Source: Draconibacterium orientale (GTDB lineage Bacteria > Bacteroidota > Bacteroidia > Bacteroidales > FEN-979). Taken from it: DNA of 54,102 bases. The notes beneath the pieces are model-generated. The model worked only from the letters and a program-made list of their open reading frames with translations. It was not told the origin of the DNA and did not search any database. The stretch is taken from assembly GCA_020718225.1 (NCBI GenBank), contig DYSO01000005.1, forward strand, positions 1 through 54,102, read 5' to 3'. Positions 1 through 48,530 of the stretch are shown here, piece by piece (the stretch's first letter is position 1; each line of letters begins with the position of its first letter). A program made the position numbers and the translations under genes.

Positions 1-90
1 GCCTTCCAGCCCTTCCCACTCCGACACACGGACAGAAAGACAATGCAGCAAAAATTAAAGACGTAATATCGGAGGACAAGAACGGCCAGC

Positions 91-223
91 TTGTAACAGG
101 CGGTATATTTTATTGCCGAGACAGTGGGTATTTCAGCGTTTCTGCATCTAATAAACTTTCGTGTAACTTGACAGGACAGTGCTTCGAAATCGGCAACAAA
201 AACATACCGCCAATCCGTTGGCA
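91..223 (+). repeat. attC-like imperfect inverted repeat (putative gene-cassette recombination site)
   Basis: ttgtAAC (91-97) ... GTTggca (217-223). Arm 99-119 GGCGGTATATTTTATTGCCGA pairs with arm 190-211 TCGGCAACAAAAACATACCGCC (19 WC pairs, 2 mismatches, 1 bulge). Length 133 bp. Confidence 0.6.
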
Positions 224-321
224 ACAAGTGTAAAAAGACAGACGAGACCAAAGCTTGCAAAAGAGCTGCAACCGACCGAAGGGAGCTCACGAGCACCTTT
301 GAAAATAAATAATCGGGCGAG

Positions 322-329
322 TAATTTTG
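322..329 (+). promoter_or_regulatory. Putative Bacteroidota -7 promoter element (TAnnTTTG) for hsdM
   Basis: TAATTTTG about 60 bp upstream of the ATG at 390. Confidence 0.4.
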
Positions 330-389
330 CTTACGCACCCGTGCTAAATTGTTACATTTTAGCTTTTAAAATAGTGAACAGAAAATACT

Positions 390-1505
390 ATGACAGATAA
401 TTTAGAATTAGAAAAAACCCTTTGGCAAGCAGCCGATAAACTCCGCAACAATATGGATGCGGCTGAATACAAACACGTGGTTTTGGGTTTGATATTCTTG
501 AAATACATTTCGGATGCTTTTGACGAACTATATGAGCATTTAAAAGATACGGAAAACGAAACAGGAGCCAACCCCGAAGATAAAGACGAATATACAGCCG
601 AAAGAGTTTTCTATGTTCCACCACAGGCACGTTGGAAATGGTTACAAGGCAAGGCCAAACTGCCAACAATAGGCAAAGACATTGACGATGCAATGGATGC
701 TATTGAAAAGGACAACGCTACACTAAAAGGAGTTTTACCAAAAGACTATGCCCGACCTGCATTAGATAAGCAACGATTAGGAGAATTGATTGATTTAATT
801 GGTTCAATCACTTTGAGCAAGGGCGGAAACGGAAAAGGCAAAGATGTTTTAGGTTTTGTATTTGAATATTTCTTAGGACAATTTGCCGACGCCGAAGGCA
901 AAAAAGGCGGACAATTTTATACACCGCAAAGCATTGTAAAAATACTGGTTGATATGCGTGCACCCGAACCCGAAAAACGAGTTTATGACGGATGTTGCGG
1001 AAGTGGTGGAATGTTTGTGCAAAGCGAACGCTTTATTGAAATGCACGAACACCGAAAAGGCAAGATTTCTATTTACGGACAAGAAAGCAACCCGACAACT
1101 CATAAATTAGCTAAAATGAATTTGGCTATTCGTGGTATAGATGCCAAAATTGAATTGGGCGATACTTTGATGAGCGACAAATTTCCCGAACTCAAGGTTG
1201 ATTATGTAATTGCAAATCCACCTTTCAATGTTAGCGACTACAACATAAACAAAGCCGAAACGCACAAATGGAAATACGGCATACCACCAACAGGCAACGC
1301 TAACTACGCTTGGTTGCAGCATTTCGTGAGCAAACTTGCGCCTTATGGAACAGCAGGAATTGTTTTGGCAAATGGAAGTATGAGTTCTGAAATTGCAACC
1401 GAAGGAGAAATCCGAAAAGCAATGATTGAAGCCGATTTGGTGGATTGTATGGTTTCCTTGGATAACACAGGCAAAAATGTTAGCAGAAGACTTGGTAAAT
1501 GGTAA
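390..1505 (+). pseudogene. hsdM: Type I restriction-modification methyltransferase subunit M, 3'-truncated
   Basis: N-terminus [38 protein letters not shown], motif [12 protein letters not shown] and motif IV NPPF. HsdM-like sequence stops at VDCMVSL (~1460), about 150 aa short of a typical HsdM. No hsdS follows. Confidence 0.85.
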
Positions 1506-1583: not shown

Positions 1584-4500
1584 ATGAAAAAAATTCACTA
1601 CCATCGGTTTTTTTATGTTCTGGCTGTTTTTGCCGGAATAGCGCTCCTGATGATTTCCGGGTGCAGGAAACAAAGTTCACTGCAGCGGGTCAATCCGGCA
1701 TTCCGGGAATATATCCAGGCATTCACAACGGGGATTATATCAACGCGGTCGGTTATTAAGGTCCGGCTGGCCGACAATTTTGCCGATACGGTCACCTTTA
1801 ACATGCCGGTAGCGGAGACCTTTTTCAGGTTTAAACCTGTCATTCAGGGAAAGACCTATTGGACCGACAGCCGGACCATCGAATTTCACCCGGACGAACC
1901 ATTGCCCCAGGACCAGGTATATACGGTCGCGTTTTTTCTTTCGAAGCTGATTACCGTTCCCGATTCACTGAACACGCTTTTTTCCCAGGTTCAGACCATG
2001 AAACAGGAGATCGCGGTTTCTGTTGAAAACCACAAAGCCTACTTTCATTCCGACCTTTCGCGTGAATTCCTTACAGGTATTTTAAAAACTTCCGACGTGG
2101 CCGACGATCAGCAGGTAGAAAAAGTTTTGAAGGCCACGCAGGATGGCCGGGAACTTCCGGTTTGCTGGTCGCATGATAAAAAGAACCGCTCCCATCTTTT
2201 CCAGGTTGATTCCATCCACAGGGGGAGAGCAGCCAGCGCTGTAAAACTTCAATGGGATGGCGCCCCGATAAATTCGAAAACCGATGGCGACCTGAAAGTG
2301 GAAATTCCGGCGCTGAACGATTTCAGAATACTGGATGTCCGGAGTTTCCCTTCGGAACAACCCTGTTTGCGGGTTCAGTTCAGCGATCCGCTGGATCCCG
2401 GTCAGAACCTGGATGGTCTTTTTCGTGTCGGGAAACTACAGGATTTACGGTATTCTGTTGATGATAACCTGCTTTGGATTTATCTCCCGGATATACAGGA
2501 GAACAAAACCAGGTTAACGTTCGAACCATCCATTAAAAATATTCAGCATAAGGAGTTGGGGAAGCGCATCCTTATCGATATTCAAATCGAAAATGCCAGC
2601 CCCAACCTTCGTTTTGTGGGTGATGGCGTGATCCTTCCAAGTTCCAACGGGATGTTGCTGCCTTTTGAAGCGGTTAACCTGAATGCGGTGGATATTAAAG
2701 TGGTCAGGATCTTCGAAAAAAACATCCTACAGTTTTTACAAGTCAATGAATTGTCGGGCAATTCTGAGCTTGCACGCGTTGGGCGGATTGTTTTAAAAAA
2801 GAGCATGCCCTTAAACGGGGTTGCCGATAAAGGCCGCTGGAACCGGTTTTCGATCGACCTTTCCAATCTGATAAAAACAGAGCCCGGGGCGATTTATTCG
2901 GTAATTCTCAGCTTTAGGAAAGATTATTCCACGTTCCCGTGTAATGGTTCCGATTCAGTAAACAATAACGACCGGGATATGATGGTCTTTTCTGATCCTG
3001 ATAAAGAGAACGACAAAGATTGGGGCTATTACAGCAATTATTACGATGATGACTACAACAACGGGGGATGGCTGCAATACCGTTGGGAAGAACGCGACGA
3101 CCCCTGTAAACCATCTTACTATTTCAACAAAACCATCAGCCGTAATGTCTTGTCTTCCGACCTGGGCATCATTGCCAAAGGGGGGAATGATGGGGAATTT
3201 CATGTTTATGTAACCGATATTGTTACTTCAAAGCCCCTGTCGGGTATCGCGGTGGAATTCTTCAATTTTCAGCTTCAAAGTTTGTGCAAAGCCACAACCG
3301 ATCAGGAAGGAATGGTGACGGTCCCGGTAAAGAAGCGGCCGTTTGTCCTGACGGCGAAAAGCAAGGGGCAAACCGGATATCTTAAACTTTCGGATGGTTT
3401 GGCCTTGTCGCTCAGTATGTTTGACGTCAGCGGCGAACCGGTACAAAACGGGATCAAAGGTTATTTATACGGCGAACGCGGAGTGTGGCGCCCGGGCGAT
3501 TCACTTTTTCTTACCTTCATTCTTGAGGATAAGGAACATCAGCTTCCGAAACATCATCCGGTTGGTTTTTCGTTGCTCAATCCTTCGGGTCAACTGATCA
3601 ACCGGATGGTCAGGACTTCTTCGGTAGATGGTTTTTACAGTTTCAATACGGTCACGGCCCCGGATGCGCCTACCGGGAACTGGCTTGCCCAGGTCAGCGT
3701 GGGTGGCGCCGAATTCCGGAAAACCCTGAAAATCGAAACCATTAAACCCAACCGTTTGAAGATCACACTGGACTTTAAAACCGACCGGCTAATAAAAGAT
3801 CATATTCCATCCGCTTTGCTGGAAGCTACCTGGCTTACAGGGTCCATCGCCGGGAACCTGAAGGCTAAAGTAACCATGACCCTGACAAAATCGGCAACGG
3901 AATTTAAAGGATTTCCCGGGTTTGTTTTCGACAATCCGACTGCCGGGTTTGCTGCCGAAAACATCACGGTTTTCGATGGCCGGCTGGATCCTTCAGGTTG
4001 TGCCCTTATCCTGCCAAAAATTCATGTAACCCACACCGCTCCAGGCGTTCTGAATGCCCGGTTCGAGACCATGGTTTTCGAAGATGGGGGCGATTTCAGC
4101 GTTGACCGGTTTGTCCTTCCCTATTATCCTTTTCAATCCTATTGTGGCATTCGGCCCCCCTTGAATACAAAAAACGACCACATCCTCATGACCGACAAAA
4201 CATACCCGGTCGACTTGGTTAATGTGGATTCCCGGGGGAAGCTGGTCCCGTCCAATACCTTGAAAGTTGAAGTCTATAAACTTGAATGGCGGTGGTGGTG
4301 GGACGATTCTGAAGAAGGTTCCGCCGATTTTATCTCAACTGCTTATATCCGGCCCGTCGACTCGACCCTATTGAAAACCGCTGACGGAAAAGCATCATAT
4401 CCGTTTGAGGCAGGTTATGATGATTGGGGAAGATATCTCATCAAAGTCACAGATCAATCGTCGGGCCATGCAGCCGGAACGATCGTATATGTAGACTGGC

Positions 4501-7157
4501 CCGGCTATTTCCGTATGCCGGGAGGAGAAAAGCAGGCGGCAGCAATGCTCACGCTCACTACCGATAAACCTGGTTATAAAGTGGGCGATATGATAAAATT
4601 AACACTTCCGTCTGCTCCGGATGGAAGGGCATTGGTTACCATCGAAACCGGGTCGAAGGTGTTAAAATCATTCTGGGTCCCCACTTCCCGGGGGAGTGTC
4701 GATTTTTCTGTTAAAGCAACAGAAGCGATGGCGCCCAATTGCTATGTTTACATTACCCTGATCCAGCCGCATGCGCAAACAACGAATGATCTTCCCATCC
4801 GGCTATACGGAGTTGTAGCTGTCCCCATTGAAAATCCAGGCACACATCTCAGCCCGGCCATCCACGTTCAAAAAGAATGGGCGCCCGGACAAAAAGTGAC
4901 CATTGGTATCAGCGAAAGCAACGGAAAACCCATGACCTATACCTTAGCCATTGTTGATGAGGGTTTGCTTGACCTTACCCGGTTTAAAACACCCGATCCG
5001 TGGAATGTTTTTTATGCAAGGGAAGCGCTTGGGGTGAAAACATGGGACCTGTACGATCAGGTAATAGGGGCATACAGCGGAGAATTACAACGGATTTTAA
5101 GCATCGGTGGCGATCAGGAAGGCGACTTGAAAGGGATGCTGAAAGCCAACCGGTTTGTTCCAATGGTGCGGAATTTTGGCCCATATGAATTGAAAAGCGG
5201 CCAATCGCGCAACCATTCTTTTATCATGCCTCAGTATATTGGATCGGTGAGGGTGATGGTGGTGGCAGGTAAAGATGGCGCTTATGGCCGGAATGAAAAA
5301 ACAGTAGCGGTGAAAAAACCGCTGATGGTACTTGGAACGCTTCCGCGGGTAGTTGGTCCGGGTGAAACGCTAAAGCTTCCGGTAAGTGTATTTGCCATGG
5401 ACAAAACAATAAAAAACGTGAAAGTTGATCTGGAAGTGAACCCTCAGTTTATTATCGAAGGAGCAGTTTCAAAACAACTCGTATTTACTGCAACGGGTGA
5501 TCAGATGGTTACCTTCGATCTGAAAGTCAGGGAATCAACCGGAATCGGGAAAATCCATATAGTCGCTTTCAGTGGGGACCAAACGGCCGACCATGAAATA
5601 GAAATCGAAGTCAGGAATCCCAATACCCGGATAACCAACATTTTTGAAAAGGCAATTCAGCCGGGAGGTTCCTGGATGGCTGATGTTGTTTCTCCCGGAA
5701 TTCCGGGTACCAACAGCGGGACCCTGGAAATCTCATCCATGCCGCCACTCAACCTGAAACAACGGTTGGGGTTCCTGATGAAATATCCCTATGGTTGTCT
5801 GGAACAATCGGTTTCTGCTGTTTTCCCACAACTCTGTCTGACCGATATTATGGATCTTCCGGAGGGATCAAAAAAAGAGACAACCCAGCATATCCGCCTG
5901 GCTATTCAAAGGATAAAATCGTTTCAGCTTACCAATGGAGGATTGTCATACTGGCCGGGAGGAACTTATGCCGATGATTGGGGTACCAGTTATGCCGGCC
6001 ATTTTATGATTGAAGCAGAACAGAAAGGATACGCCTTACCGGCTCATTTTATCTCTTCCTGGAAAGAATTTCAGCGACAGAAAGCGGTCTCCTGGAATGT
6101 CAATGCCGGCTATTTTAATGATGACCTCGTACAGGCCTATCGTTTGTTTACATTGGCCCTTGCCCGGTCGCCGGAGTTGGGTTCGATGAACCGACTGCTG
6201 GAGAAAAAAGACCTTTCGATAGCAGCGCAATGGCAACTGGCAGCGGCCTATCAGATTGCCGGGAAAAGTGAAACTGCCATCCAATTGATTAACCGGGCTA
6301 CCATGGGGGTTAAACCTTACCGGGAACTTACCGGTACTTTCGGTTCAGATCTTCGCGACAAAGCCATGATCGTTGACGCGCTCTGCCTCCTGAATATGAA
6401 AACGAAGGCGGCCCCCCTGGTAAAAGAGATCTCCGATGCTTTATGTTCAAGAGAATGGTACAGTACCCAATCCACCGCCTTTGCCCTTATGGCCATCGTG
6501 AAATTTACCGGAAACAGTTCCGGATCCGGAATTACGGCTACCTGCCGGATATATCAGGACGAGCCTGTTAAAATCAGTACCACGAATCCGTTTTTCTCCC
6601 GTTCCATCGATGTAATTCCCGGGAAAAAAGGGGTTGTACAGGTCACAAACAATGGTAAAAATATCCTGTTTGCCCGGGTCATTGTTTCCGGCATACCGGG
6701 CTTTGACGACGTTACTGCCGCTTCCAGTAACCTGAAGATAAAAGTAACCTGGCAATCGATCAAAGGAGACGTCATCAATCCCCAAAAATTGCCACAGGGG
6801 ACCAATTTCATTATGGAAGTGACCATTACCAACCCGGGGTTGCGGGGGAATTACCAACAATTGGCCCTGTCGCAGATTTTTCCATCGGGGTGGGAGATAA
6901 TCAATGCCCATAGCAGCAGCCTGGCCCAGACACAAACTACGGACTCTCCGTTTAGTTATCAGGATGTTCGCGATGACCGGGTTTATACCCATTTTGACCT
7001 GGATGCTGCTCAATCCAAAACATTCAGGGTGATGCTAATGGCTGCCTATCAGGGGAAGTTTTATATGCCGGCTGTTTTGTGCGAAGCCATGTACGATAAT
7101 ACCATTAATGCCCGCGTACCAGGTGGATGGGTGGAGGTGATACCATCCATAAAATGA
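1584..7157 (+). CDS. Bacterial alpha-2-macroglobulin family lipoprotein (YfhM-like)
   Basis: 1857 aa, lipobox ISGC, ERGVWRPGD, AIVDEGLL, thioester motif YPYGCLEQ, DVRDDRV/EAMYD C-terminus, adjacent to pbpC. Confidence 0.95.
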   Translation: MKKIHYHRFFYVLAVFAGIALLMISGCRKQSSLQRVNPAFREYIQAFTTGIISTRSVIKVRLADNFADTVTFNMPVAETFFRFKPVIQGKTYWTDSRTIEFHPDEPLPQDQVYTVAFFLSKLITVPDSLNTLFSQVQTMKQEIAVSVENHKAYFHSDLSREFLTGILKTSDVADDQQVEKVLKATQDGRELPVCWSHDKKNRSHLFQVDSIHRGRAASAVKLQWDGAPINSKTDGDLKVEIPALNDFRILDVRSFPSEQPCLRVQFSDPLDPGQNLDGLFRVGKLQDLRYSVDDNLLWIYLPDIQENKTRLTFEPSIKNIQHKELGKRILIDIQIENASPNLRFVGDGVILPSSNGMLLPFEAVNLNAVDIKVVRIFEKNILQFLQVNELSGNSELARVGRIVLKKSMPLNGVADKGRWNRFSIDLSNLIKTEPGAIYSVILSFRKDYSTFPCNGSDSVNNNDRDMMVFSDPDKENDKDWGYYSNYYDDDYNNGGWLQYRWEERDDPCKPSYYFNKTISRNVLSSDLGIIAKGGNDGEFHVYVTDIVTSKPLSGIAVEFFNFQLQSLCKATTDQEGMVTVPVKKRPFVLTAKSKGQTGYLKLSDGLALSLSMFDVSGEPVQNGIKGYLYGERGVWRPGDSLFLTFILEDKEHQLPKHHPVGFSLLNPSGQLINRMVRTSSVDGFYSFNTVTAPDAPTGNWLAQVSVGGAEFRKTLKIETIKPNRLKITLDFKTDRLIKDHIPSALLEATWLTGSIAGNLKAKVTMTLTKSATEFKGFPGFVFDNPTAGFAAENITVFDGRLDPSGCALILPKIHVTHTAPGVLNARFETMVFEDGGDFSVDRFVLPYYPFQSYCGIRPPLNTKNDHILMTDKTYPVDLVNVDSRGKLVPSNTLKVEVYKLEWRWWWDDSEEGSADFISTAYIRPVDSTLLKTADGKASYPFEAGYDDWGRYLIKVTDQSSGHAAGTIVYVDWPGYFRMPGGEKQAAAMLTLTTDKPGYKVGDMIKLTLPSAPDGRALVTIETGSKVLKSFWVPTSRGSVDFSVKATEAMAPNCYVYITLIQPHAQTTNDLPIRLYGVVAVPIENPGTHLSPAIHVQKEWAPGQKVTIGISESNGKPMTYTLAIVDEGLLDLTRFKTPDPWNVFYAREALGVKTWDLYDQVIGAYSGELQRILSIGGDQEGDLKGMLKANRFVPMVRNFGPYELKSGQSRNHSFIMPQYIGSVRVMVVAGKDGAYGRNEKTVAVKKPLMVLGTLPRVVGPGETLKLPVSVFAMDKTIKNVKVDLEVNPQFIIEGAVSKQLVFTATGDQMVTFDLKVRESTGIGKIHIVAFSGDQTADHEIEIEVRNPNTRITNIFEKAIQPGGSWMADVVSPGIPGTNSGTLEISSMPPLNLKQRLGFLMKYPYGCLEQSVSAVFPQLCLTDIMDLPEGSKKETTQHIRLAIQRIKSFQLTNGGLSYWPGGTYADDWGTSYAGHFMIEAEQKGYALPAHFISSWKEFQRQKAVSWNVNAGYFNDDLVQAYRLFTLALARSPELGSMNRLLEKKDLSIAAQWQLAAAYQIAGKSETAIQLINRATMGVKPYRELTGTFGSDLRDKAMIVDALCLLNMKTKAAPLVKEISDALCSREWYSTQSTAFALMAIVKFTGNSSGSGITATCRIYQDEPVKISTTNPFFSRSIDVIPGKKGVVQVTNNGKNILFARVIVSGIPGFDDVTAASSNLKIKVTWQSIKGDVINPQKLPQGTNFIMEVTITNPGLRGNYQQLALSQIFPSGWEIINAHSSSLAQTQTTDSPFSYQDVRDDRVYTHFDLDAAQSKTFRVMLMAAYQGKFYMPAVLCEAMYDNTINARVPGGWVEVIPSIK

Positions 7158-9621: not shown

Positions 9622-11919
9622 ATGAAAATGTACCTGAAAGCGGTGTTTTTTATTATTGTCATTATCCTGACAGGATGTGGACATAAAGAGGTCCAGATCA
9701 CCAACCTCGACATGCTGAAAGGGGGCAAAACTTTTGCCGTACCTACCGGGACTGCGGCCGACCAGTTTGTACTGAAAAAATTTCCGGATGCCAAAATCGA
9801 GTATTACAACAGTGTGCTCGATTGCGCTATGGCCGTCAGGGATGGCAAAGCTGATGCCGTGGTTTACGACCTGCCTGTTTTAAAAAATATTTCCGGAAAG
9901 AACGAAGGACTATTAATCTTGCCTGAATTGTTATTTGACGATCAGTATGGTTTCGCAGTGCAGATGCATGACACGGCACTAAAAACTACCATGGACAAGG
10001 TACTGGCTGAGCTGAAGGCAGATGGCACTTACGATGACATGCAAAAACGCTGGTTTCCCGAACACGGAAGCCCGTCGCCCATGCCGGAGATCAAACTCAC
10101 CGGCGAGAATGGGGCGCTTAAATTCGGTACGGCCGCAGTGACCGAACCCATGACGTTTGTGGATGGCAGTCAGAAAATGGCAGGATTCGATATTGAATAT
10201 GCCACCTATATTGCAAAAAAACTTGGGAAACAGATCGAAATTGTCGACATGGAATTTGGGGCTATGATCCCGGCCCTGATGTCGGGAAAAGTGGACATGA
10301 TCGGCGCCGGAATCTCCATCACCGAAGAGAGGGCCAAAAGCGTGCTTTTTTCACAAAGCTACTATCCAAGTGGCCTGGCAGCCGGTGTTAAAGATGTTTC
10401 GAAAGGTGTTTCTGAAGAAACGCCCGAAGAAAGCGGCGCGAAGATGAAATCCATCGAAGATATAAAAACGAAAAGAATCGGTGTATTGTTAGGCAGCATC
10501 CATGATTCCTACGTAACCCGCACCTTTCCGGGGGCCACGATACTACAGTATCAGAACCTTTCCGATATGCTGTTTGGCCTGAATACAGATAAGGCTGATG
10601 TCGCGTTTATGGATCACACGGGGCTAAAGGATATTTTCAGCAAAAACCCGGAGTTGGGTGTTCTGGCTGAAAATGTTTTTGCCGTCGACATCGCGGCCGG
10701 ATTCAACCAGAAAAACGACTCCCTCCGCCTGCAATTTAATACCTTCCTTAAAGAAATCAGGAGCAACGGCGTATACAAGGATATGGAAGATCGCTGGATA
10801 ACCAAAGGATTGACTGAAATGCCGGTAATTACTGGCCCCAAAGCGAACGGGGAGCTCCGGGTGGGTATTGTCAGCGACCTGGGATTACCAACAACCATCA
10901 TCCAGGACGGACGCCTGATAGGATTTGATATTGAACTCGGCCAACGGTTTGCTGCTTATACCGGTAAAGAATATGTGCCGGTCGATTTACAATTTGCAGC
11001 AATGTTAGCCTCTGTTTCAACCGACAAAATCGATATAATTACCAGTTCGTTAATGATCACCGAAGAACGAAAGAAACAAATTGATTTTTCCGATCCCTAT
11101 TACAATTCGGGGGTGAGCATTATTGCAAAACAAAACAACATCGACCGGCCATTTGCCATGAACGACAATAAGGCAGGTGGCGGAAATGAATCCGGAATCC
11201 GGGAAAAAACAATTTTCAGGACCATTTCAGACAGTTTTTACAACAACATTATCCTGGAAAAACGTTACCTGCACATCTTCGATGGATTGGCCGTGACCAT
11301 AATCATTTCGATACTGGCTGCCTTCCTGGGTACCCTGATCGGAGCCCTGGTTTGCTACATGCGGATGTCGAAAACCAGATTTCTTTCCGAGTTGGCTAAA
11401 ATCTATATATGGCTGTTGCGCGGGACTCCGGTGCTGGTTCTGCTCATGATTATTTATTATGTGGTATTTGCCTCGGTAAATATCGACCCGGTCGTCGTGG
11501 CTGTGATTGCCTTTGGACTGAACTTTGGCGCCTATGTTTCCGAAATGTTCCGGACTTCCATAGAAAGTATCGACAAGGGGCAGACGGAAGCTGCTACGGC
11601 GGGAGGATTTACAAAGATCCAAACCTTCGGCTTAATCATTCTGCCACAAGCATTGCGCAGCATCTTACCGGTATATAAGGGAGAATTCATTTCCCTGATT
11701 AAAATGACATCCATTGTGGGTTACATCGCCGTACAGGATCTCACCAAGGCCAGTGATATCATCCGCAGCCGTACCTTCGATGCCTTCTTTCCGCTCATCA
11801 TGGTTGCTGTGATCTATTTGTTCCTTGCCTGGTTGCTGTCGTGGGCTCTTGGTTTTATCGAAATCTCTGCAGATCCTAAAAGAAAACGCGCTAAAATAAT
11901 GAGGAGGATAGCCGGATGA
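9622..11919 (+). CDS. Polar amino-acid ABC transporter, fused substrate-binding (family 3) domains + permease
   Basis: Lipobox LTGC, two GFDIE and two ITEER motifs, permease RGTP and EAA loop (IDKGQTEAA). Start likely 9622/9628 rather than 9562. Confidence 0.9.
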
Positions 11920-13001
11920 TCAAAGTAAGAAACCTCTCAAAACATTTTGGGAACCTGGTCGTGCTGAAGGACATCAGCGCTGATATCCGGAAAGGGGAAG
12001 TCATTTCCGTCATTGGTCCGTCAGGTACCGGGAAAAGTACCTTTCTCCGCTGCCTGAACCTGCTTGAAACCCCAACCGGGGGAACCATCTTCATCGATGA
12101 TGTCCCGCTGCTTGATAAACGTACCAACGTTTCAAAACTTCGCCAGAAGATGGGGATGGTTTTTCAATCCTTTAACCTTTATGCACACCTTTCGGTAATC
12201 GAAAATCTGACCATCGGCCCGGTTAAATTGCTTGGGAAACAACGGGCCGAAGCAGATGCAAAAGCGATGGAGCTTTTAAAAGTGGTCGGATTGGCCGAAA
12301 AAGCCGGGAGCTTCCCCGATGAACTGTCGGGCGGGCAGAAACAGCGGGTTGCCATTGCCCGTTGCATGGCCATGGACCCGGAAATCCTGCTTTTTGACGA
12401 ACCTACTTCGGCGCTCGACCCAACCATGGTCAGCGAAGTACTGGCCGTGATCCGACGGCTGTCACGCGAAGGGATGACCATGATCATTGTGACCCATGAA
12501 ATGGAATTTGCCAGAAATATATCGGACCGGATTTTTTACATGGACGAAGGCGTAATTTATGAAGAGGGAACCCCCCAACAAATTTTCGACCATCCGCAGA
12601 AAGAAAAAACCAGGGCATTCATCCACCGGGTACGCAGCCTGAATTTCCATATCAGCAGCAGCAATTACGACCTCTATGCCATGCAGGGAGAGATGGAACT
12701 GTTCTGCGAAAAGCACATGCTCCCTAAAAAAGTGACGGGTTATGTGGTTCATATCACCGAAGAACTCCTGGGAATCCAGACCGATTTTTCCGATATAAAA
12801 CTGAACCTCTCCTATACTGAAAAAGAGGGCGATGTACAACTGGTTTGCGAAAGCGCAGGTATTCCTGAAAATCCGCTGAAAACGGAATTGCTCGAAGAGG
12901 ACATTGCATTGAAACTCATCCTCGGAAGGTGCAAAAGCGTCAATTATACATATACTGACGGTAAAAATGTTTTGGCGCTCAGGATCAAAGGGGAGTCATG
13001 A
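11916..13001 (+). CDS. Polar amino-acid ABC transporter ATP-binding protein (GlnQ-like) with ~120-aa C-terminal extension
   Basis: Walker [10 protein letters not shown], signature LSGGQKQR, Walker [13 protein letters not shown]-loop VTHEM. Confidence 0.93.
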
Positions 13002-13013
13002 TCATCTTTCAAC

Positions 13014-13021
13014 TATCTTTG
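13014..13021 (+). promoter_or_regulatory. Putative -7 promoter element
   Basis: TATCTTTG matches TAnnTTTG, 18 bp before the ATG at 13040. Confidence 0.55.
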
Positions 13022-13039
13022 CGACTTTAAATCAAACCT

Positions 13040-14050
13040 ATGATTCTTGTAACCGGAGGTACAGGTCTGCTGGGCTCCCATTTACTTCTCAATCTTGTTC
13101 AGTCAGGCAAACCTGTTCGTGCCATCAAACGCGCATCCAGCGATACCCGCATGGTTTCCGGAATCTTTTCCTATTACACTCCCAATCCTGAAGAACTTGC
13201 CGGGAAAATTCAATGGGTGGATGCCGATCTTATGGATTTTGGGGCTGTTGAAGATGCCCTTGAAGGAATAACCGAAATTTATCATGCCGCGGCAATAGTC
13301 TCTTTTTATCCGAAAGACCACAAAGCCATGTTGAAGGTCAACATCGAAGGAACGGCAAATTTAGTGAACCAGGCCATCGGCCATCAAGTTGGGAAATTTT
13401 GTTACGTCAGTTCGGTAGCTACCCTGGGCAGGGCCGAAAACGATGGTCTTTCAACGGAAGAAACCTACTGGGTCCCATCCCGGAAAAACTCGGTTTACAG
13501 CATCAGTAAATATGGAGCTGAACGCGAAGTCTGGCGTGGTATGGAAGAAGGCCTCCGGGCCGTGATTGTCAGTCCTTCCGTTATTCTGGGACCGGGATTC
13601 TGGAACGATAACTCCGGATTGTTCCGCCTGGTTTGGGAGGGGTTGAAATATTACACAAACGGGGTAAACGGTTATGTGGATGCACGCGATGTTTCACAGG
13701 CAATGGTTGGGTTGATGGACAATAACCTCTTCGGTCAGCGTTTCATTTGCTCTTCGGAAAATCTTACGTACCGGGATTTTTTTAGCACGATCGCAAAACA
13801 CCTGCATAAGCCGGCGCCTTCGGTTAATGTCCCCATGGCGCTCACATCCATTGCCTGGCGTGTGGAGGCAGTACGGGCTTTTCTGACGGGGTCAAAACCC
13901 GAAGTGACCCGTGAAATGGCCATAACCACCACTCAGCATTACACCTATTCCAATGAGAAAATAAAAAGAACCATCGATTTCAAATTCAGGTCGATAGAGG
14001 AATCGATAGGGGAGATTTGTGGTTTTTTCCTGAAGGACCATGTAAGATGA
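13040..14050 (+). CDS. NAD-dependent epimerase/dehydratase (extended SDR)
   Basis: ILVTGGTGLLG Rossmann motif, HAAA, YSISK (YxxxK). Confidence 0.9.
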   Translation: MILVTGGTGLLGSHLLLNLVQSGKPVRAIKRASSDTRMVSGIFSYYTPNPEELAGKIQWVDADLMDFGAVEDALEGITEIYHAAAIVSFYPKDHKAMLKVNIEGTANLVNQAIGHQVGKFCYVSSVATLGRAENDGLSTEETYWVPSRKNSVYSISKYGAEREVWRGMEEGLRAVIVSPSVILGPGFWNDNSGLFRLVWEGLKYYTNGVNGYVDARDVSQAMVGLMDNNLFGQRFICSSENLTYRDFFSTIAKHLHKPAPSVNVPMALTSIAWRVEAVRAFLTGSKPEVTREMAITTTQHYTYSNEKIKRTIDFKFRSIEESIGEICGFFLKDHVR

Positions 14051-14063
14051 TGGCGACCGGTTG

Positions 14064-14912
14064 TCAGGTTGTCCCGAAATACCTGAATTGACTTCTCAGA
14101 CTTCCGGCTACATCGGAAAATTCGATCTCTTTTTCAAACTCAACCATCAGATGGCTGTCAACCAGGATGCGTGGATTTACAGACAATCTGAAAATTTCAC
14201 GATAGGTTTTTTTTCTTAACAGACCATCTGATCCGTTCCCTTTGCGGATATTTTTTTGATATGTGATGGCATTGGATATAACGATAAAAGGATAAAAGAA
14301 AGGAAAGAGGATCACCGATGTGCTTTTTATCCGGGTGGGATGGATTTTTTTAATTTGAAAACCGGACAGTTTTGCCTGGGCCCTTAATTTTTGAATGCCG
14401 GTTAAAAAAAGATGGCCGTAATAAATTTCGGGGGTAATATCCTGATCCGACATCCAGATACTGTCAATTTCATTGGGGGGCATGAGTGTGTTGAACCGTT
14501 CGCTCTCGCTCAGTAAATAGCTGAGTTTTGCCCGGAGATTTGAATAATTGGGCGTTGTAATGATCAATTTCCCCATTGGTTTTAAAACCCGGTTAAACTC
14601 CCTGAGGGCGGCCAGTTGATTGGCAAAGTGTTCAATCCCTTCCTGACAGATCAGGGCATCGGCTATGTGGTCTGGGAGCGGTATCCCATCAGAGATATTG
14701 GCACGTTGGCAACGCATACCCCGGACCTGAAAATACTCAGGAAACAGGTCAAAGGCCATGGGCCGGGCCCCGATCTCTAAAAGAATTTTGGAAGTGATTC
14801 CATTCCCGGCCGGAAAATCAACAACCATACGATCTTCAAAATGTTTCCGGTTCAGCAACAAAAACTGTTTGACAAAGTATTTGATACTCTTTCTATCGTC
14901 TTCGTAAGTCAT
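14064..14912 (-). CDS. Class I SAM-dependent methyltransferase
   Basis: VVDFPAGNG motif I, EGIEH, RVLKPMG, ITTPN. Confidence 0.85.
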   Translation of the reverse strand: MTYEDDRKSIKYFVKQFLLLNRKHFEDRMVVDFPAGNGITSKILLEIGARPMAFDLFPEYFQVRGMRCQRANISDGIPLPDHIADALICQEGIEHFANQLAALREFNRVLKPMGKLIITTPNYSNLRAKLSYLLSESERFNTLMPPNEIDSIWMSDQDITPEIYYGHLFLTGIQKLRAQAKLSGFQIKKIHPTRIKSTSVILFPFFYPFIVISNAITYQKNIRKGNGSDGLLRKKTYREIFRLSVNPRILVDSHLMVEFEKEIEFSDVAGSLRSQFRYFGTT

Positions 14913-14922
14913 TGTTGTTGAT

Positions 14923-16344
14923 TTATCGGATCAGGTTCCGGTAATGATAAAAACGGGTAACGATGTCATCCACAAATCCTTCCGTCTTATAATCCGGAAA
15001 AAATGTTCCCACACTATCGGGGTTAGCCATTGGGTTGCTTTTTGATCGTCGTAATAAATAGTAATCAACGTGCCGGTTCCATTTCCCTTTGTCCCTGCCG
15101 TATTTCTCCGCTTTTTCACGGGCAGCCATTACCCTTCCGAGTCCTACATTGTAAGAGGCTAACACAAAATAGACCCGTTCCCGGGGGTCAATAATGTCTT
15201 TGGGAAGTTGTTTGTCAAGGTATTGGAGATACTTAACGCCAGCTTCAATCTGCCGCGCCGGTGGAGAAAGACTGTCAATGCCATATTTAACTGCTGTTTC
15301 CGGCATCAGCTGCATCAGTCCGCTTGCGTTTCGGGTCGAAACCTGTCCGGGTCTGAAATTGGATTCTTCATACACCAGGGAGGCAATCAACCTCCAATCC
15401 CAGTTGATCCGTTTGCTTTGTTCGTGCAGAATATCGTCGTAGGGGGAAAGACGGTTGCTGTTGACCGAAAAATAATTGCTTCTTAGTAAATTTACAATAC
15501 GCTGGTTGTTAAAATAATCAAGATAGATTTTTTTTAATTTCCCCGAAGATTTATATTCCCCAAGCCATTTGTTGATTTCAGCAAGCAGTGAATCGGAGGC
15601 ATGGCCCACACCCCAACCATAACTGTAATGTGGGAAAGCAATCAGGGAGATATCAATATTTTGATAATACCGTTTGTAAACCATGGCAACATTTTCCTGG
15701 CATATGGCATAACGGATTTTACCTTCGGAAACCAACCGGATCAAATCTTCCTGACTGAATATTGCAGATTCCCGGAGTATTGCCTTCTTTTTTGTCGCCT
15801 TATAAATCGAGTGATAGATGGATGCGAAAAAAGGATTTTGTCTGACATGGAGCGTATCGGAAGGGAAATCGTTCAACGATTTTACATAAGCAGTGTCGTC
15901 CTTGTTTTTACCGGATGCTTTTTGCTGAACAAGTGCCAGCCGGGTTTCCCCGAAGGGCATTGAAAAAGACACAAGGCTATTTCCTTCTGTAGTTATGGGA
16001 AGGTTCAGGGCAATCAGGTCGGCAGCATTGTTTTTCAGATAATAGTTGAGCGTCGGAATGCTTTTGCTGGAAATGATTTTCAGCGGGACCCCCAAATACC
16101 GGGCAAAAGTTTCCAGCAAAATCAGTTGATATCCCATCGGTTCACCACGATATATAAAGTAATTCAGGGTGTTCTCGTCCGTTAAGGCAATCAGGTAGCC
16201 CCTTTCCCTGATCCGGTGAAAAGCATCCTTTTTCTCCGCTTCACGGTAGTATAAAGAGTGGGTTATATAAACAGCAATGGCAAGAAGGGCCACGCCCATC
16301 AGGATGGCCCTGAATCTGTGAATGAATTGTGATATTTTTTTCAA
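14923..16344 (-). CDS. mltF: MltF-like lytic transglycosylase (SBP-3 domain + SLT domain)
   Basis: N-terminal YFIYRGEPMGY SBP domain; SLT motifs EESNF, GLMQL, ASYNVG. Confidence 0.85.
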   Translation of the reverse strand: MKKISQFIHRFRAILMGVALLAIAVYITHSLYYREAEKKDAFHRIRERGYLIALTDENTLNYFIYRGEPMGYQLILLETFARYLGVPLKIISSKSIPTLNYYLKNNAADLIALNLPITTEGNSLVSFSMPFGETRLALVQQKASGKNKDDTAYVKSLNDFPSDTLHVRQNPFFASIYHSIYKATKKKAILRESAIFSQEDLIRLVSEGKIRYAICQENVAMVYKRYYQNIDISLIAFPHYSYGWGVGHASDSLLAEINKWLGEYKSSGKLKKIYLDYFNNQRIVNLLRSNYFSVNSNRLSPYDDILHEQSKRINWDWRLIASLVYEESNFRPGQVSTRNASGLMQLMPETAVKYGIDSLSPPARQIEAGVKYLQYLDKQLPKDIIDPRERVYFVLASYNVGLGRVMAAREKAEKYGRDKGKWNRHVDYYLLRRSKSNPMANPDSVGTFFPDYKTEGFVDDIVTRFYHYRNLIR

Positions 16345-16351
16345 TATATTG

Positions 16352-17470
16352 TTATGCTACTTTTCTGTATCTCCAAATGGCCAGATTTACAATGAAGAAT
16401 GCGTAAATTACCAGGGCCCAGAAATGGCGGCTGATATCGGCAAATGTTGACCCCTTCAGCAATACCATCCGCATAATCTTGATAAAATACATCAAGGGGT
16501 TCAATTTATCCAATGTTTGCGCCCATTGCGGCATGCTCTCAATGGAAGTGAACAAGCCGCTCATCAGAATGAATACCACCATGAAAAAGAACGAAATAAG
16601 CATCGACTGCTGTTGGGTATGTGAAATTGTGGATATGAGCAGTCCGAATGCCAAAATTACAAAAAGATATACAGCTGCCGATAAAAAAATGAGCCAAAGG
16701 TTTCCTTCGATGGGAATGTTGAAAAGTAATTTACCGATCGTCAGTCCGAAAGCCAGTTCAAAGAGGGAGATAATCCAGAATGGGGCCAGTTTCCCGGTAA
16801 TAAACTGAATTTTTACAATAGGCGTAACATTGATTTGTTCGATGGTACCGATCTCTTTTTCCCTTACAATGTTCATTCCCGATAGCAGGAGCCCGATAAT
16901 GGTTACGAGAAGCACTAAAATTCCCGGGACCATATATGTTTTGTAATTCAGTTCCGGGTTATACCAGTAGCTGTATTCGGTGTGGATGTTTCTCAGGGAC
17001 GATGGAGCTGAATTATTGAAGTTTGCGAGGGCCGTCTGACGGTTGTAGTCAAGCAGGATGATGGTTGAATAAGCATTGATAAGACCGGCAGAAGCTCCGT
17101 TGATGGCATTAATTACAAACTGGGCCCTGGCATGGTTTTCTTTCATCAGGTTTTTTTCAAATCCGGCAGGGATGTTCAGGATCAGGTCAACCTTACCCTG
17201 TTGCATCTGGTTCATAGCTTCCTGGTACGAAAAGGAGAATTGCTTTATCTGATAAAAAGGGGATCCTTCAAATTTTCGGATCAATCCCCTTGATGTGGCA
17301 GAAAGATCGAGATCGACGACCGACATCCGGATGTGTTTCATTTCGAAGGTAGCGGCATTCACCAGGATAATGAGCTGAACAATGGGGACAAGAAAAATAA
17401 TCGGTAACATGGCTTTATCCCTGAAAACCTGTAGAAATTCCTTTTGGATGATATACCGGATTGTTCTCAT
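16352..17470 (-). CDS. ABC-2 type transporter permease (YbhR-like)
   Basis: KEFLQ, YNPELNY, VREKEIGTIEQINVTP, multiple TM segments. Confidence 0.9.
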   Translation of the reverse strand: MRTIRYIIQKEFLQVFRDKAMLPIIFLVPIVQLIILVNAATFEMKHIRMSVVDLDLSATSRGLIRKFEGSPFYQIKQFSFSYQEAMNQMQQGKVDLILNIPAGFEKNLMKENHARAQFVINAINGASAGLINAYSTIILLDYNRQTALANFNNSAPSSLRNIHTEYSYWYNPELNYKTYMVPGILVLLVTIIGLLLSGMNIVREKEIGTIEQINVTPIVKIQFITGKLAPFWIISLFELAFGLTIGKLLFNIPIEGNLWLIFLSAAVYLFVILAFGLLISTISHTQQQSMLISFFFMVVFILMSGLFTSIESMPQWAQTLDKLNPLMYFIKIMRMVLLKGSTFADISRHFWALVIYAFFIVNLAIWRYRKVA

Positions 17471-18573
17471 CAGGCCAATCGAATATTGAATTTTTTAACG
17501 CTCAGCATCAGAAAAAAGAGGGTAAACCCCAATAAAATCAAAGTTTCTTGCCAAACACAGGCAAGTCCGTTCCCCTGAAGCATGATGCTTTTAATGATGG
17601 TAATGAAATATTTTGGTGGCATCACATAACAAAAAACCTGTAAAATCCAGGGCATGTTTTCCACCGGGAAGATAAAACCGCTCAATAGAATGGTCGGAAG
17701 CATCAATGCAACCAGAGAGACCATCATGGCGATTTGCTGACTGCTGGTTAGGGTTGAGATCAGTATTCCCAATGAAAGGGCCATGCAGATGTATAAAAAA
17801 CTTTCTGCCAATAACAGGGTAATACTTCCCAGCACAGGTACATGAAAAACCGTATTTCCAAGGACCAGGATAATAATTGCGTCGATAAAAGCCAGAAATA
17901 CGTATGGAAATACTTTCCCGATAATGATTTGAACCGGCCGTAACGGTGAGACCAACAACAATTCCATGGTTCCCAGCTCTTTTTCACGGGTTATCGCCAG
18001 GGAGGTCATCAGCGCTGAGATCAGCATCAGCAACATGGCCATCAATCCCGGGACAAACATATAAACCCCTTTGAGCTCCCCGTTATACATCATGCGCGCC
18101 TGCGGGATGATCTGGTAGGGCACTTTTTCCGAATTGATCGAAATAAGGTAATTGCTGATGATGCCACTGGCATAGTTTACTAAAATATTGGCTGTATTGG
18201 GATCAGAGGCATCCCCGATAATCTGAAGGTGTGCCGTTCCATTTTTTTCCATTTTTTTTGCGAATTCCGGCTCAAAAACAATTGCCAGGCTGACTTCGCC
18301 ATATCGGAAAGCAGACTCAATTTCTGCTATGTTGTTCAGGTTTCGTTCCAGGATAAAATATCCGGACGAAAGGATTTTATCGCTGATCATCCGTGTGACA
18401 ATATCTTTTGACGGATCATAAATGGCAATCCTGGCATCCTTTATTTCGTTGGTAATCACATAACCGAACAACATCAGTTGAACGGCAGGCATGCCAAAAA
18501 GAATCAGCAGGGTGCGGTAATCCCTGAAAATGTGGTAAAATTCTTTAACGACAAATGCCCTGAAACGTTTCAT
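17470..18573 (-). CDS. ABC-2 type transporter permease (YbhS-like)
   Basis: KEFYHIFRD, DASDPNTA, REKELGTMELLLVSP, LSGFIFP. Confidence 0.9.
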   Translation of the reverse strand: MKRFRAFVVKEFYHIFRDYRTLLILFGMPAVQLMLFGYVITNEIKDARIAIYDPSKDIVTRMISDKILSSGYFILERNLNNIAEIESAFRYGEVSLAIVFEPEFAKKMEKNGTAHLQIIGDASDPNTANILVNYASGIISNYLISINSEKVPYQIIPQARMMYNGELKGVYMFVPGLMAMLLMLISALMTSLAITREKELGTMELLLVSPLRPVQIIIGKVFPYVFLAFIDAIIILVLGNTVFHVPVLGSITLLLAESFLYICMALSLGILISTLTSSQQIAMMVSLVALMLPTILLSGFIFPVENMPWILQVFCYVMPPKYFITIIKSIMLQGNGLACVWQETLILLGFTLFFLMLSVKKFNIRLA

Positions 18574-48453: not shown

Positions 48454-48530
48454 GGGCCCATAGCTCAGACGGTTAGAGCAGCTGACTCATAATCAGCTGG
48501 CCACAGGTTCAAGTCCTGTTGGGCCCACCA
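48454..48530 (+). tRNA. tRNA with CAT anticodon, most likely tRNA-Ile2 (lysidine); tRNA-Met not excluded
   Basis: Acceptor GGGCCCA/TGGGCCC, D arm GCTC/GAGC, anticodon arm GCTGA-CTCATAA-TCAGC, T loop TTCAAGT, discriminator A and encoded CCA. Confidence 0.95.

Follow-up and report, generated by a model that had tools for sequence, protein, structure and literature searches.

A covarying hairpin of Bacteroidota as a probable attC-like recombination site of an integron-like gene-cassette system

The stretch of Draconibacterium orientale DNA analyzed here (the window, 54,102 nt) is the entire contig C55 of a genome in 275 contigs, and it begins 90 nt to the left of a hairpin element at 91-223. The element is a folded-DNA site of about 135 bases that ends in AAC and GTT and stands ahead of a gene of a restriction-modification (R-M) system. 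The locus thus raises the question whether the hairpin is a recombination site comparable to those of integrons and, if so, of what kind. Integron attC sites are 57-141 bp long with AAC and GTT ends and extrahelical bases, and their bottom strand folds preferentially. The element is probably a recombination site of attC-like type that serves an integron-like system of gene cassettes widespread in Bacteroidota. This reading rests on a conserved structure with covariation, on arrays, on polarity relative to a recombinase gene and on breakpoints at the core.

The description of the element in the first-pass annotation was confirmed to the base. The 5' outer box, TTGTAAC (R''-like, 91-97, with AAC at 95-97), pairs with the 3' outer box GTTGGCA (R'-like, 217-223, with GTT at 217-219), which is also where homology breakpoints are located. 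The long stem consists of a left arm at 99-119 and a right arm at 190-211, found in the repeat search as two overlapping inverted pairs (99-111/199-211 and 108-119/190-201, each 92% complementary) and identified also by folding and covariation. The arms mismatch at A107·C203 and A112·C197, where the A·C of the top strand becomes a G·T wobble on the bottom strand, and a single A is bulged out in the run 198-202. On the left side only A98 separates the box from the arm, and it faces the unpaired 5-nt spacer AATCC (212-216), the two forming a conserved asymmetric internal loop. The loop between the arms (120-189) varies in length among copies and has motifs conserved at both of its bases, CAGTG at 122-126 and TTGACAGG..AGTGC at 168-182. 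Also the direct repeat GACAGTG is present, at 120-126 and 175-181. Consensus folding predicts no conserved internal pairing in the loop.

Covariance model R1, which represents the bottom strand, matches the entire element at 90-226 on the minus strand with 149.1 bits; the window copy is a seed member of the model. When folded as a single DNA sequence, the copy reached -19.7 kcal/mol on the top strand and -19.1 kcal/mol on the bottom strand (z about -2.5), and 4 of 200 shuffles on each strand folded as well. Both strands thus fold about equally, and the window copy itself shows no clear strand preference. By itself its sequence is modest evidence for structure, whereas the comparative evidence is far beyond chance. 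An att site at a tRNA end or of an integrative element was considered and rejected; the sole tRNA of the window, a tRNA-Met gene unrelated to the element, is far off at 48454-48530, and a half-copy on another contig of the same genome (C262) is a decayed copy and not a tRNA.

In a DNA search covering 61 related genomes, positions 75-219 were matched at 70-89% identity in several families. Some of these genomes carry several copies, and often a contig end is less than 200 nt away from the match. When 19 sequences were aligned, the arms showed compensating changes, the top-strand A·C mismatches were retained, and an outer YAAC...GTTR pairing was set off from the long stem by a loop of 1 x 4-5 nt. 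In the MAFFT alignment of 13 copies, evaluated against a structure of 25 pairs, 86.7% of the cells were paired, compared to 35-49% with shifted partners. Fourteen of the 25 pairs change on both sides, and the observed values were reached in none of 500 shuffles. R1, built on the bottom strand, gathered 54 copies from the loci analyzed. These had 86.1% of the cells paired against 34-53% in shifted controls (score 0.560 vs 0.172), with two-sided change in 22 of the 25 stem pairs; this alignment was fitted to R1 and its pairing is consequently inflated, while the 13-copy alignment was not so fitted. Altogether 19 of 20 pairs of the long stem covary. The three AAC/GTT pairs are of standard type in 52, 44 and 47 of the 54 copies, respectively, so that the ends singled out in the first-pass annotation are a property of the family.

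For the 13 copies RNAalifold gave a consensus energy of -13.99 kcal/mol when the bottom strand was folded, compared to -6.25 kcal/mol for the top strand. A G·U pair that can form on the bottom strand alone is present in 51 of the 54 copies. Among 91 copies folded with DNA parameters, 59 were more stable as the bottom strand, the mean difference being -1.49 kcal/mol. The bottom-strand bias across copies, a computational result, is real but modest. The family thus shares with attC sites the paired AAC/GTT ends, the keeping of structure over sequence and the favored bottom strand. It does not share the symmetric unpaired central spacer or the conserved extrahelical bases: the bulged base is a gap in five of the 13 aligned copies and hence not conserved, which leaves no clear counterpart of the extrahelical bases of attC.

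The family is multi-copy and widely distributed. R1 found a match at E<=0.01 in 25 of 40 genomes of the genus, with up to nine matches per genome, and at E<=1e-4 in 64 of 151 genomes evenly sampled from the phylum (42 of 89 genera), with up to 13 per genome. Copies from another class scored 147 bits, nearly the score of the window copy itself.

The copies in related genomes form arrays of one orientation, in which the sites divide single genes or small operons; most of these arrays derive from metagenome-assembled genomes (MAGs). One array (G026:C276) reads TIR-SIR2, site, Mrr_cat, site, an ORF of 248 aa, site, OLD-ATPase with UvrD, and a weak site. Four sites occupy 4.5 kb in G040:C89, three are present in G050:C5, and up to ten lie within 9 kb 3' of the recombinase gene in a Chryseolinea MAG. 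Arrays were found also in Arenibacter, Algoriphagus, Arundinibacter and Winogradskyella. Among 91 copies, 75 of 80 nearest upstream ORFs and 65 of 72 downstream ORFs are co-oriented with the site; a median of 10 nt separates the preceding stop codon from the site, and a median of 33 nt lies between the site and the next start codon. In the Chryseolinea MAG array (11325-17583) site length ranges from 84-95 nt to 172-175 nt; loop length varies widely within this array, as the terminal structure does among attC sites.

The first reading of the locus had proposed that the system shuffles defence genes. The arrays do carry such genes, and further units include type II R-M genes (M with R.HinP1I), a D12 methylase and type I hsdM; however, a sample of 20 cassette ORFs taken from four arrays includes 13 that match no Pfam family. 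The others encode GNAT, RDD, HEPN, an alpha/beta hydrolase, a beta-lactamase-fold protein, DUF6794 and an AraC/GyrI protein. The AraC/GyrI-like cassette protein of G040:C89 (6463-7425) matches also Pfam Cass2, the integron-associated effector binding protein, a family whose name goes back to classical integron cassettes. In one locus (G024:C19, 7304-10900) the element is located between three ORFs that all have Reg_prop repeats, and these may be either one sensor gene split by a site or Reg_prop cassettes.

No PF00589 match was found on the window's contig, in agreement with the earlier remark that the window has no integrase. The recombinase of the same genome is at C187:349-1677, on a separate contig from the element. 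Full-length homologues of the recombinase (43-66% identity) are present in 20 of the 40 genus genomes, and a recombinase and a site were found on one contig in G024:C19, G027:C35, G005:C31 and G005:C36. In the first of these a tyrosine recombinase of 456 aa is placed directly 5' of the array in the same direction, and a linked tyrosine recombinase, which the first-pass annotation had suggested looking for, therefore exists. The gene 5' of the recombinase is conserved between genomes, which marks this as a syntenic locus of the chromosome. For most genomes of the genus, a contig end follows the recombinase stop codon after 100-600 nt, as repeats or strain-variable DNA 3' of the gene would produce. 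Since most contigs end so shortly past the gene, R1 gave only a single strong match in the 20 genus recombinase loci. Just past the recombinase stop a TAnnTTTG-like motif was seen in genus loci, e.g. at G000:C187:1-349, and this motif might drive the first cassette.

Genomes of named species contained 586 relatives of the recombinase, the best of them in Prolixibacteraceae, Draconibacterium, Arundinibacter, Aquiflexum, Algoriphagus, Paludibacter and many Flavobacteriales. From 80 retrieved recombinase loci, 45 picked by eye for downstream sequence were searched with R1 at E<=0.1. This produced 49 matches in 19 of the 45 loci, all 49 downstream of the recombinase and 48 of them co-oriented with it, while the upstream flank of the recombinase had no R1 match in any of the 45. 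The maps of these loci consist of the recombinase followed by repeated units of ORF and site. Within the genus, long recombinases and R1 matches are not positively associated: ten of the 40 genomes have recombinase and sites, ten the recombinase alone, 15 sites alone and five neither. The missing co-occurrence is likely due to unassembled arrays, other recombinase subfamilies (36-40% identity) and site subfamilies missed by R1. Other, shorter hairpins flank an ORF 3' of the G020 recombinase, which hints at a second site subfamily of this sort.

Homology between genomes breaks at the CGTT core of the sites. Most loci have a short hairpin immediately 3' of the recombinase stop codon, and CGTTR comes only a few bases later. 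Over recombinase and hairpin, G020 can be aligned collinearly with G009 at 92% identity, and the two diverge directly past ...GAGTCGTTA. The sequence that follows the core in the window, from 216 on, is present in G059 and G043 behind unrelated sequence, and there the similarity begins at CGTT. In Logan contigs from four metagenomes the summed depth over positions 81-240 was 6-50 times that of neighboring bins, and contigs run into unrelated sequence before 93/94 and before 215. As these data are contigs and not reads, they represent many contexts rather than events, and three listed joints with sides shorter than 30 nt were left out. Based on the sequence comparisons, the crossover point would be in or beside G217-T218.

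The suggestion that the element belongs to a distinct family of cassette sites in Bacteroidota is supported by these results, and the element passed each test by which the first-pass annotation had proposed to refute it: it is multi-copy in relatives, its copies separate variable, co-oriented genes in arrays, the AAC/GTT ends are kept in its homologs, and it matches no Rfam RNA and has no features of an insertion sequence (IS). A structured RNA is one alternative. Without taking part in recombination, it could be a 3'-UTR stabilizer, processing site or insulator at the end of each gene, or else a small RNA in antisense; it would show covariation as RNA structures do, and both the G·U pairs and the location a median of 10 nt past the stop codons of co-oriented genes would be typical of it. 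We nevertheless consider it very unlikely. The G·U pairs are antisense to the flanking genes, and on the sense strand 51 of 54 copies keep an A·C mismatch; there is no T-run at the element; and a search of Rfam with window 1-1500 at E<=10 gave no family match except one chance miRNA match. A structured RNA leaves unexplained the polarity 3' of the recombinase, the CGTT breakpoints and the YAAC/GTTR ends.

The recombinase of G024:C19 passed NF040815 'site-specific tyrosine recombinase/integron integrase' with 230 bits (cut-off 220). It fell below the cut-offs of TIGR02249 'integron integrase' (216 bits where 265 are required) and of NF011946 (146 bits where 435 are required). The closest solved structures were VchIntIA (2A3V, 142.7 bits) and XerA (139.2 bits), and the same two were again on top when the AlphaFold model (pLDDT 80.9) was searched with Foldseek. 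The alignment with 2A3V is split, query residues 345-367 (23 aa) standing against residues 181-246 of IntI4 (66 aa). The recombinase lacks the IntI-specific insertion, the region of the I2 alpha-helix. The array-linked enzyme of Arenibacter gave its best, and a continuous, alignment with the archaeal XerA-like 4A8E (159.6 bits). Genus enzymes carry in addition an N-terminal extension of about 175 aa; for the homologue from G024, Pfam recognized no family within residues 1-185. The AlphaFold model of this part (pLDDT 78.9) consists of two ferredoxin-like modules, for which Foldseek found nothing at E<=0.001. Also in VIA-align all matches of the N-terminal domain were within background, the best at Z 8.2 (ACT-like, 61 residues) and others at Z 6-7 to UvsW/XPB N-terminal and eIF1-like folds.

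A double-stranded module boundary of Xer/dif type, comparable to the pdif modules of Acinetobacter plasmids and recombined as a duplex with no folding, would agree with a recombinase that is Xer-like and has no I2 helix. According to one study (PMC7790495), it was by gaining the I2 helix that integron integrases went from recombining double-stranded DNA to recombining single-stranded DNA. The end boxes are, however, about 120 nt apart, and the duplex that would be bound forms only upon folding of the element. Nor would a site bound by protein as a duplex be expected to show compensatory change, as 19 of the 20 stem pairs do, and no dif-like 11-6-11 palindrome was seen by eye at the GTT end. 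A duplex site is accordingly as improbable as the structured RNA.

Slightly less probable still is a canonical attC site of an ordinary, known type of integron that happens to occur in Bacteroidota. The AAC/GTT ends, a length within the attC range, the bottom-strand bias and arrays adjoining a tyrosine recombinase to which VchIntIA is the nearest solved structure all speak for it. Against it stand the 23 residues in place of the 66 of VchIntIA at the IntI-specific insertion, the TIGR02249 score below its cut-off, the continuous XerA-like alignment of the array-linked Arenibacter enzyme and the spacers of 1 and 5 nt, which are not symmetric. In addition, the IntegronFinder 2.0 survey (PMC9024848) credits Bacteroidetes with In0 alone and then with one Salinibacter integron. 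The judgment in the first-pass annotation that this is not a canonical attC thus holds for the spacers, which are 1 and 4-5 nt in the family, and it now extends to a recombinase that lacks the IntI I2 segment. Least credible of all is a MITE- or REP-like transposable element, non-autonomous and mobilized by a transposase, whose location between genes would be incidental: terminal inverted repeats, multiple copies often near contig ends and high metagenome depth would suit it, but the arms covary rather than keep one sequence, the orientation is tied to the flanking genes on both sides (75/80 and 65/72), the alignments show no target-site duplication, the element shows no IS features, and 49 of 49 matches lie on one side of the recombinase gene.

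For the preferred reading, an attC-like site of a cassette system, the following mechanism can be proposed, in which we infer the single-stranded substrate, the cleavage point, the identity of the enzyme and recombination itself. The bottom strand, about 135 nt, would fold into the hairpin, and the outer YAAC/GTTR box and the long stem, parted by the 1 x 5-nt loop, would provide two binding positions for a tyrosine recombinase, analogous to the R and L boxes of attC. The enzyme would be the Xer/IntI-like recombinase lacking the I2 insertion. Its gene would head the arrays, co-directional with the cassettes and followed by the small hairpin site ending in CGTTR, which would be attI-like. A crossover at G|TT or directly beside it would then insert, excise and reorder units of one or more genes with a site.

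Such a system would have its nearest known counterpart in sedentary chromosomal integrons, such as the array of Vibrio cholerae with VCR-type attC sites of about 120 nt; in one group of sedentary integrons the integrase is co-oriented with the cassettes. As these integrons are commonly described, they are alike in having a recombinase at the head of the array, at a locus syntenic within the genus, and packed co-oriented cassettes. They also resemble the present arrays in their imperfect palindromes of roughly 60-140 nt with AAC...GTT ends, conserved more in structure than in sequence and favoring the bottom strand, and in a cargo largely of ORFans with defence, GNAT and toxin-like genes. The differences are that the recombinase here has no IntI insertion but an N-terminal extension of about 175 aa in this lineage, that the sites have an asymmetric 1 x 5-nt loop and no conserved extrahelical bases, that the integrase-proximal site is a small hairpin, and that a unit can be an entire operon which carries a promoter-like motif of its own, as is the case for some of them. 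The co-oriented array beside a recombinase, with an attI-like hairpin and CGTTR next to it, is what an integron has, but as the IntI insertion and the symmetric spacer are both missing, the system is not filed as one. The best reading is that it works like a sedentary chromosomal integron while not being a canonical integron. Known Xer recombinases (XerA, XerC/D, XerH) act on dif sites, which are short and duplex. The present enzymes align continuously with XerA or XerC-like structures in their catalytic and core-binding domains, while their sites are long covarying hairpins in arrays.

In integron biology single-strand recombination of attC depends on the I2 helix of IntI, and to our knowledge Bacteroidota have been treated as nearly integron-free. 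One study describes how integron integrases shifted from double- to single-strand DNA recombination by acquiring this helix (PMC7790495). For Bacteroidetes, the IntegronFinder 2.0 survey adds one complete integron, in Salinibacter, to the earlier In0 alone (PMC9024848), and two further sources list Bacteroidota among phyla with integrons without giving detail (PMC8618304; 10.1101/2022.02.06.479319). In full-text literature searches no description of the present system was found, although IntegronFinder tables could list some of the loci. The evidence is about evenly balanced on a wider proposal, namely that Bacteroidota own a phylum-wide integron lineage, either an independent invention or a surviving pre-I2 form, in which an I2-less Xer-type enzyme would recombine bottom-strand hairpins, another part of the protein would read the hairpin, and shared sites would move cassettes, including anti-phage systems, between classes. 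Within such a lineage it is possibly the modeled N-terminal pair of ferredoxin-like modules that reads the hairpin in place of I2. If the system is active, structure-specific cassette capture has a second, or ancestral, solution, and Bacteroidota of soil, sea, sludge and sediment hold a large unexplored mobile gene pool that includes defence systems and ORFans. Activity would also explain the assembly breaks just 3' of the recombinase gene, and the covariance model would then find arrays that current integron tools appear to miss.

The window copy itself is a less regular case. Searched with R1, its own genome contains one strong copy and two weak ones (E 0.005 and 0.012). A decayed second copy is located at G000:C262:5192-5340, with only the right arm and the CCGTTA end well kept; it follows an odd run of AATTGGCC-like repeats past the 3' end of an unannotated gene. 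By eye, the start of the product of the gene after it resembles a hybrid sensor kinase. A full copy precedes a Reg_prop hybrid sensor kinase gene in G031:C76.

On the left side of the window element, the end of a preceding unit (1-93) is apparently non-coding, and it is before 93/94 that the metagenome contigs diverge. A module at 12-75 recurs immediately 5' of element copies in other genomes, and DNA matches adjoining copies elsewhere cover 12-195, 21-61, 25-61 and 21-54. On the right side, the 5' leader of the hsdM unit (216-389) recurs ahead of other genes: its modules 216-252, 250-354 and 323-369 were found at 85-96% identity 5' of other genes in other families of the order. The leader contains a palindrome at 343-363 and, at 322-329, the promoter-like TAnnTTTG motif pointed out earlier (TAATTTTG). 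It resembles a portable promoter or leader that moves along with cassettes.

The gene that follows is indeed of R-M type, but it is merely a fragment of HsdM (390-1505, 371 aa), truncated at the C-terminus according to profile and homologue alignment and apparently a cassette remnant. It covers positions 2-214 of the 311 of the N6_Mtase profile and aligns to residues 8-405 of an HsdM of 543 aa, and neither hsdS nor hsdR was found after it to complete a type I system. Ordinary chromosomal genes come next, encoding alpha-2-macroglobulin (A2M), PBP1C and an ABC transporter. The A2M gene (1584-7157) begins the conserved chromosomal backbone, as determined by profile search and genus orthologues, the latter being present in 35 of the 40 genus genomes. 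No element was found at the A2M loci, including 1.5 kb upstream, of 29 other genus genomes, which shows that what was inserted here, the element together with the broken hsdM, is local to this genome and not a regular array end. The earlier view of the element as the last site of a cassette array stands in part: the site is solitary, either the last of an array or an orphan, and it precedes a decayed R-M cassette, away from the genome's recombinase gene on C187. CALIN are clusters of attC sites with no integron integrase, and the window copy is like them, or like a solitary attC, in having no recombinase nearby and a decayed cassette beside it. It differs in that only one strong site is assembled in this genome and a cognate-type recombinase is present elsewhere in it.

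When joining of contigs by k-mer overlap (at least 12 nt) was attempted, neither the start of C55 nor that of C187 could be linked to another contig. The neighbor of the A2M gene in G021 and G036 matches G000:C84:333-997, and C84 may consequently abut C55, a repeat unresolved in the assembly perhaps joining the two. Words like CCCTTCC and AAAGACA are abundant both at G000:C84:1-100 and at window 1-60.
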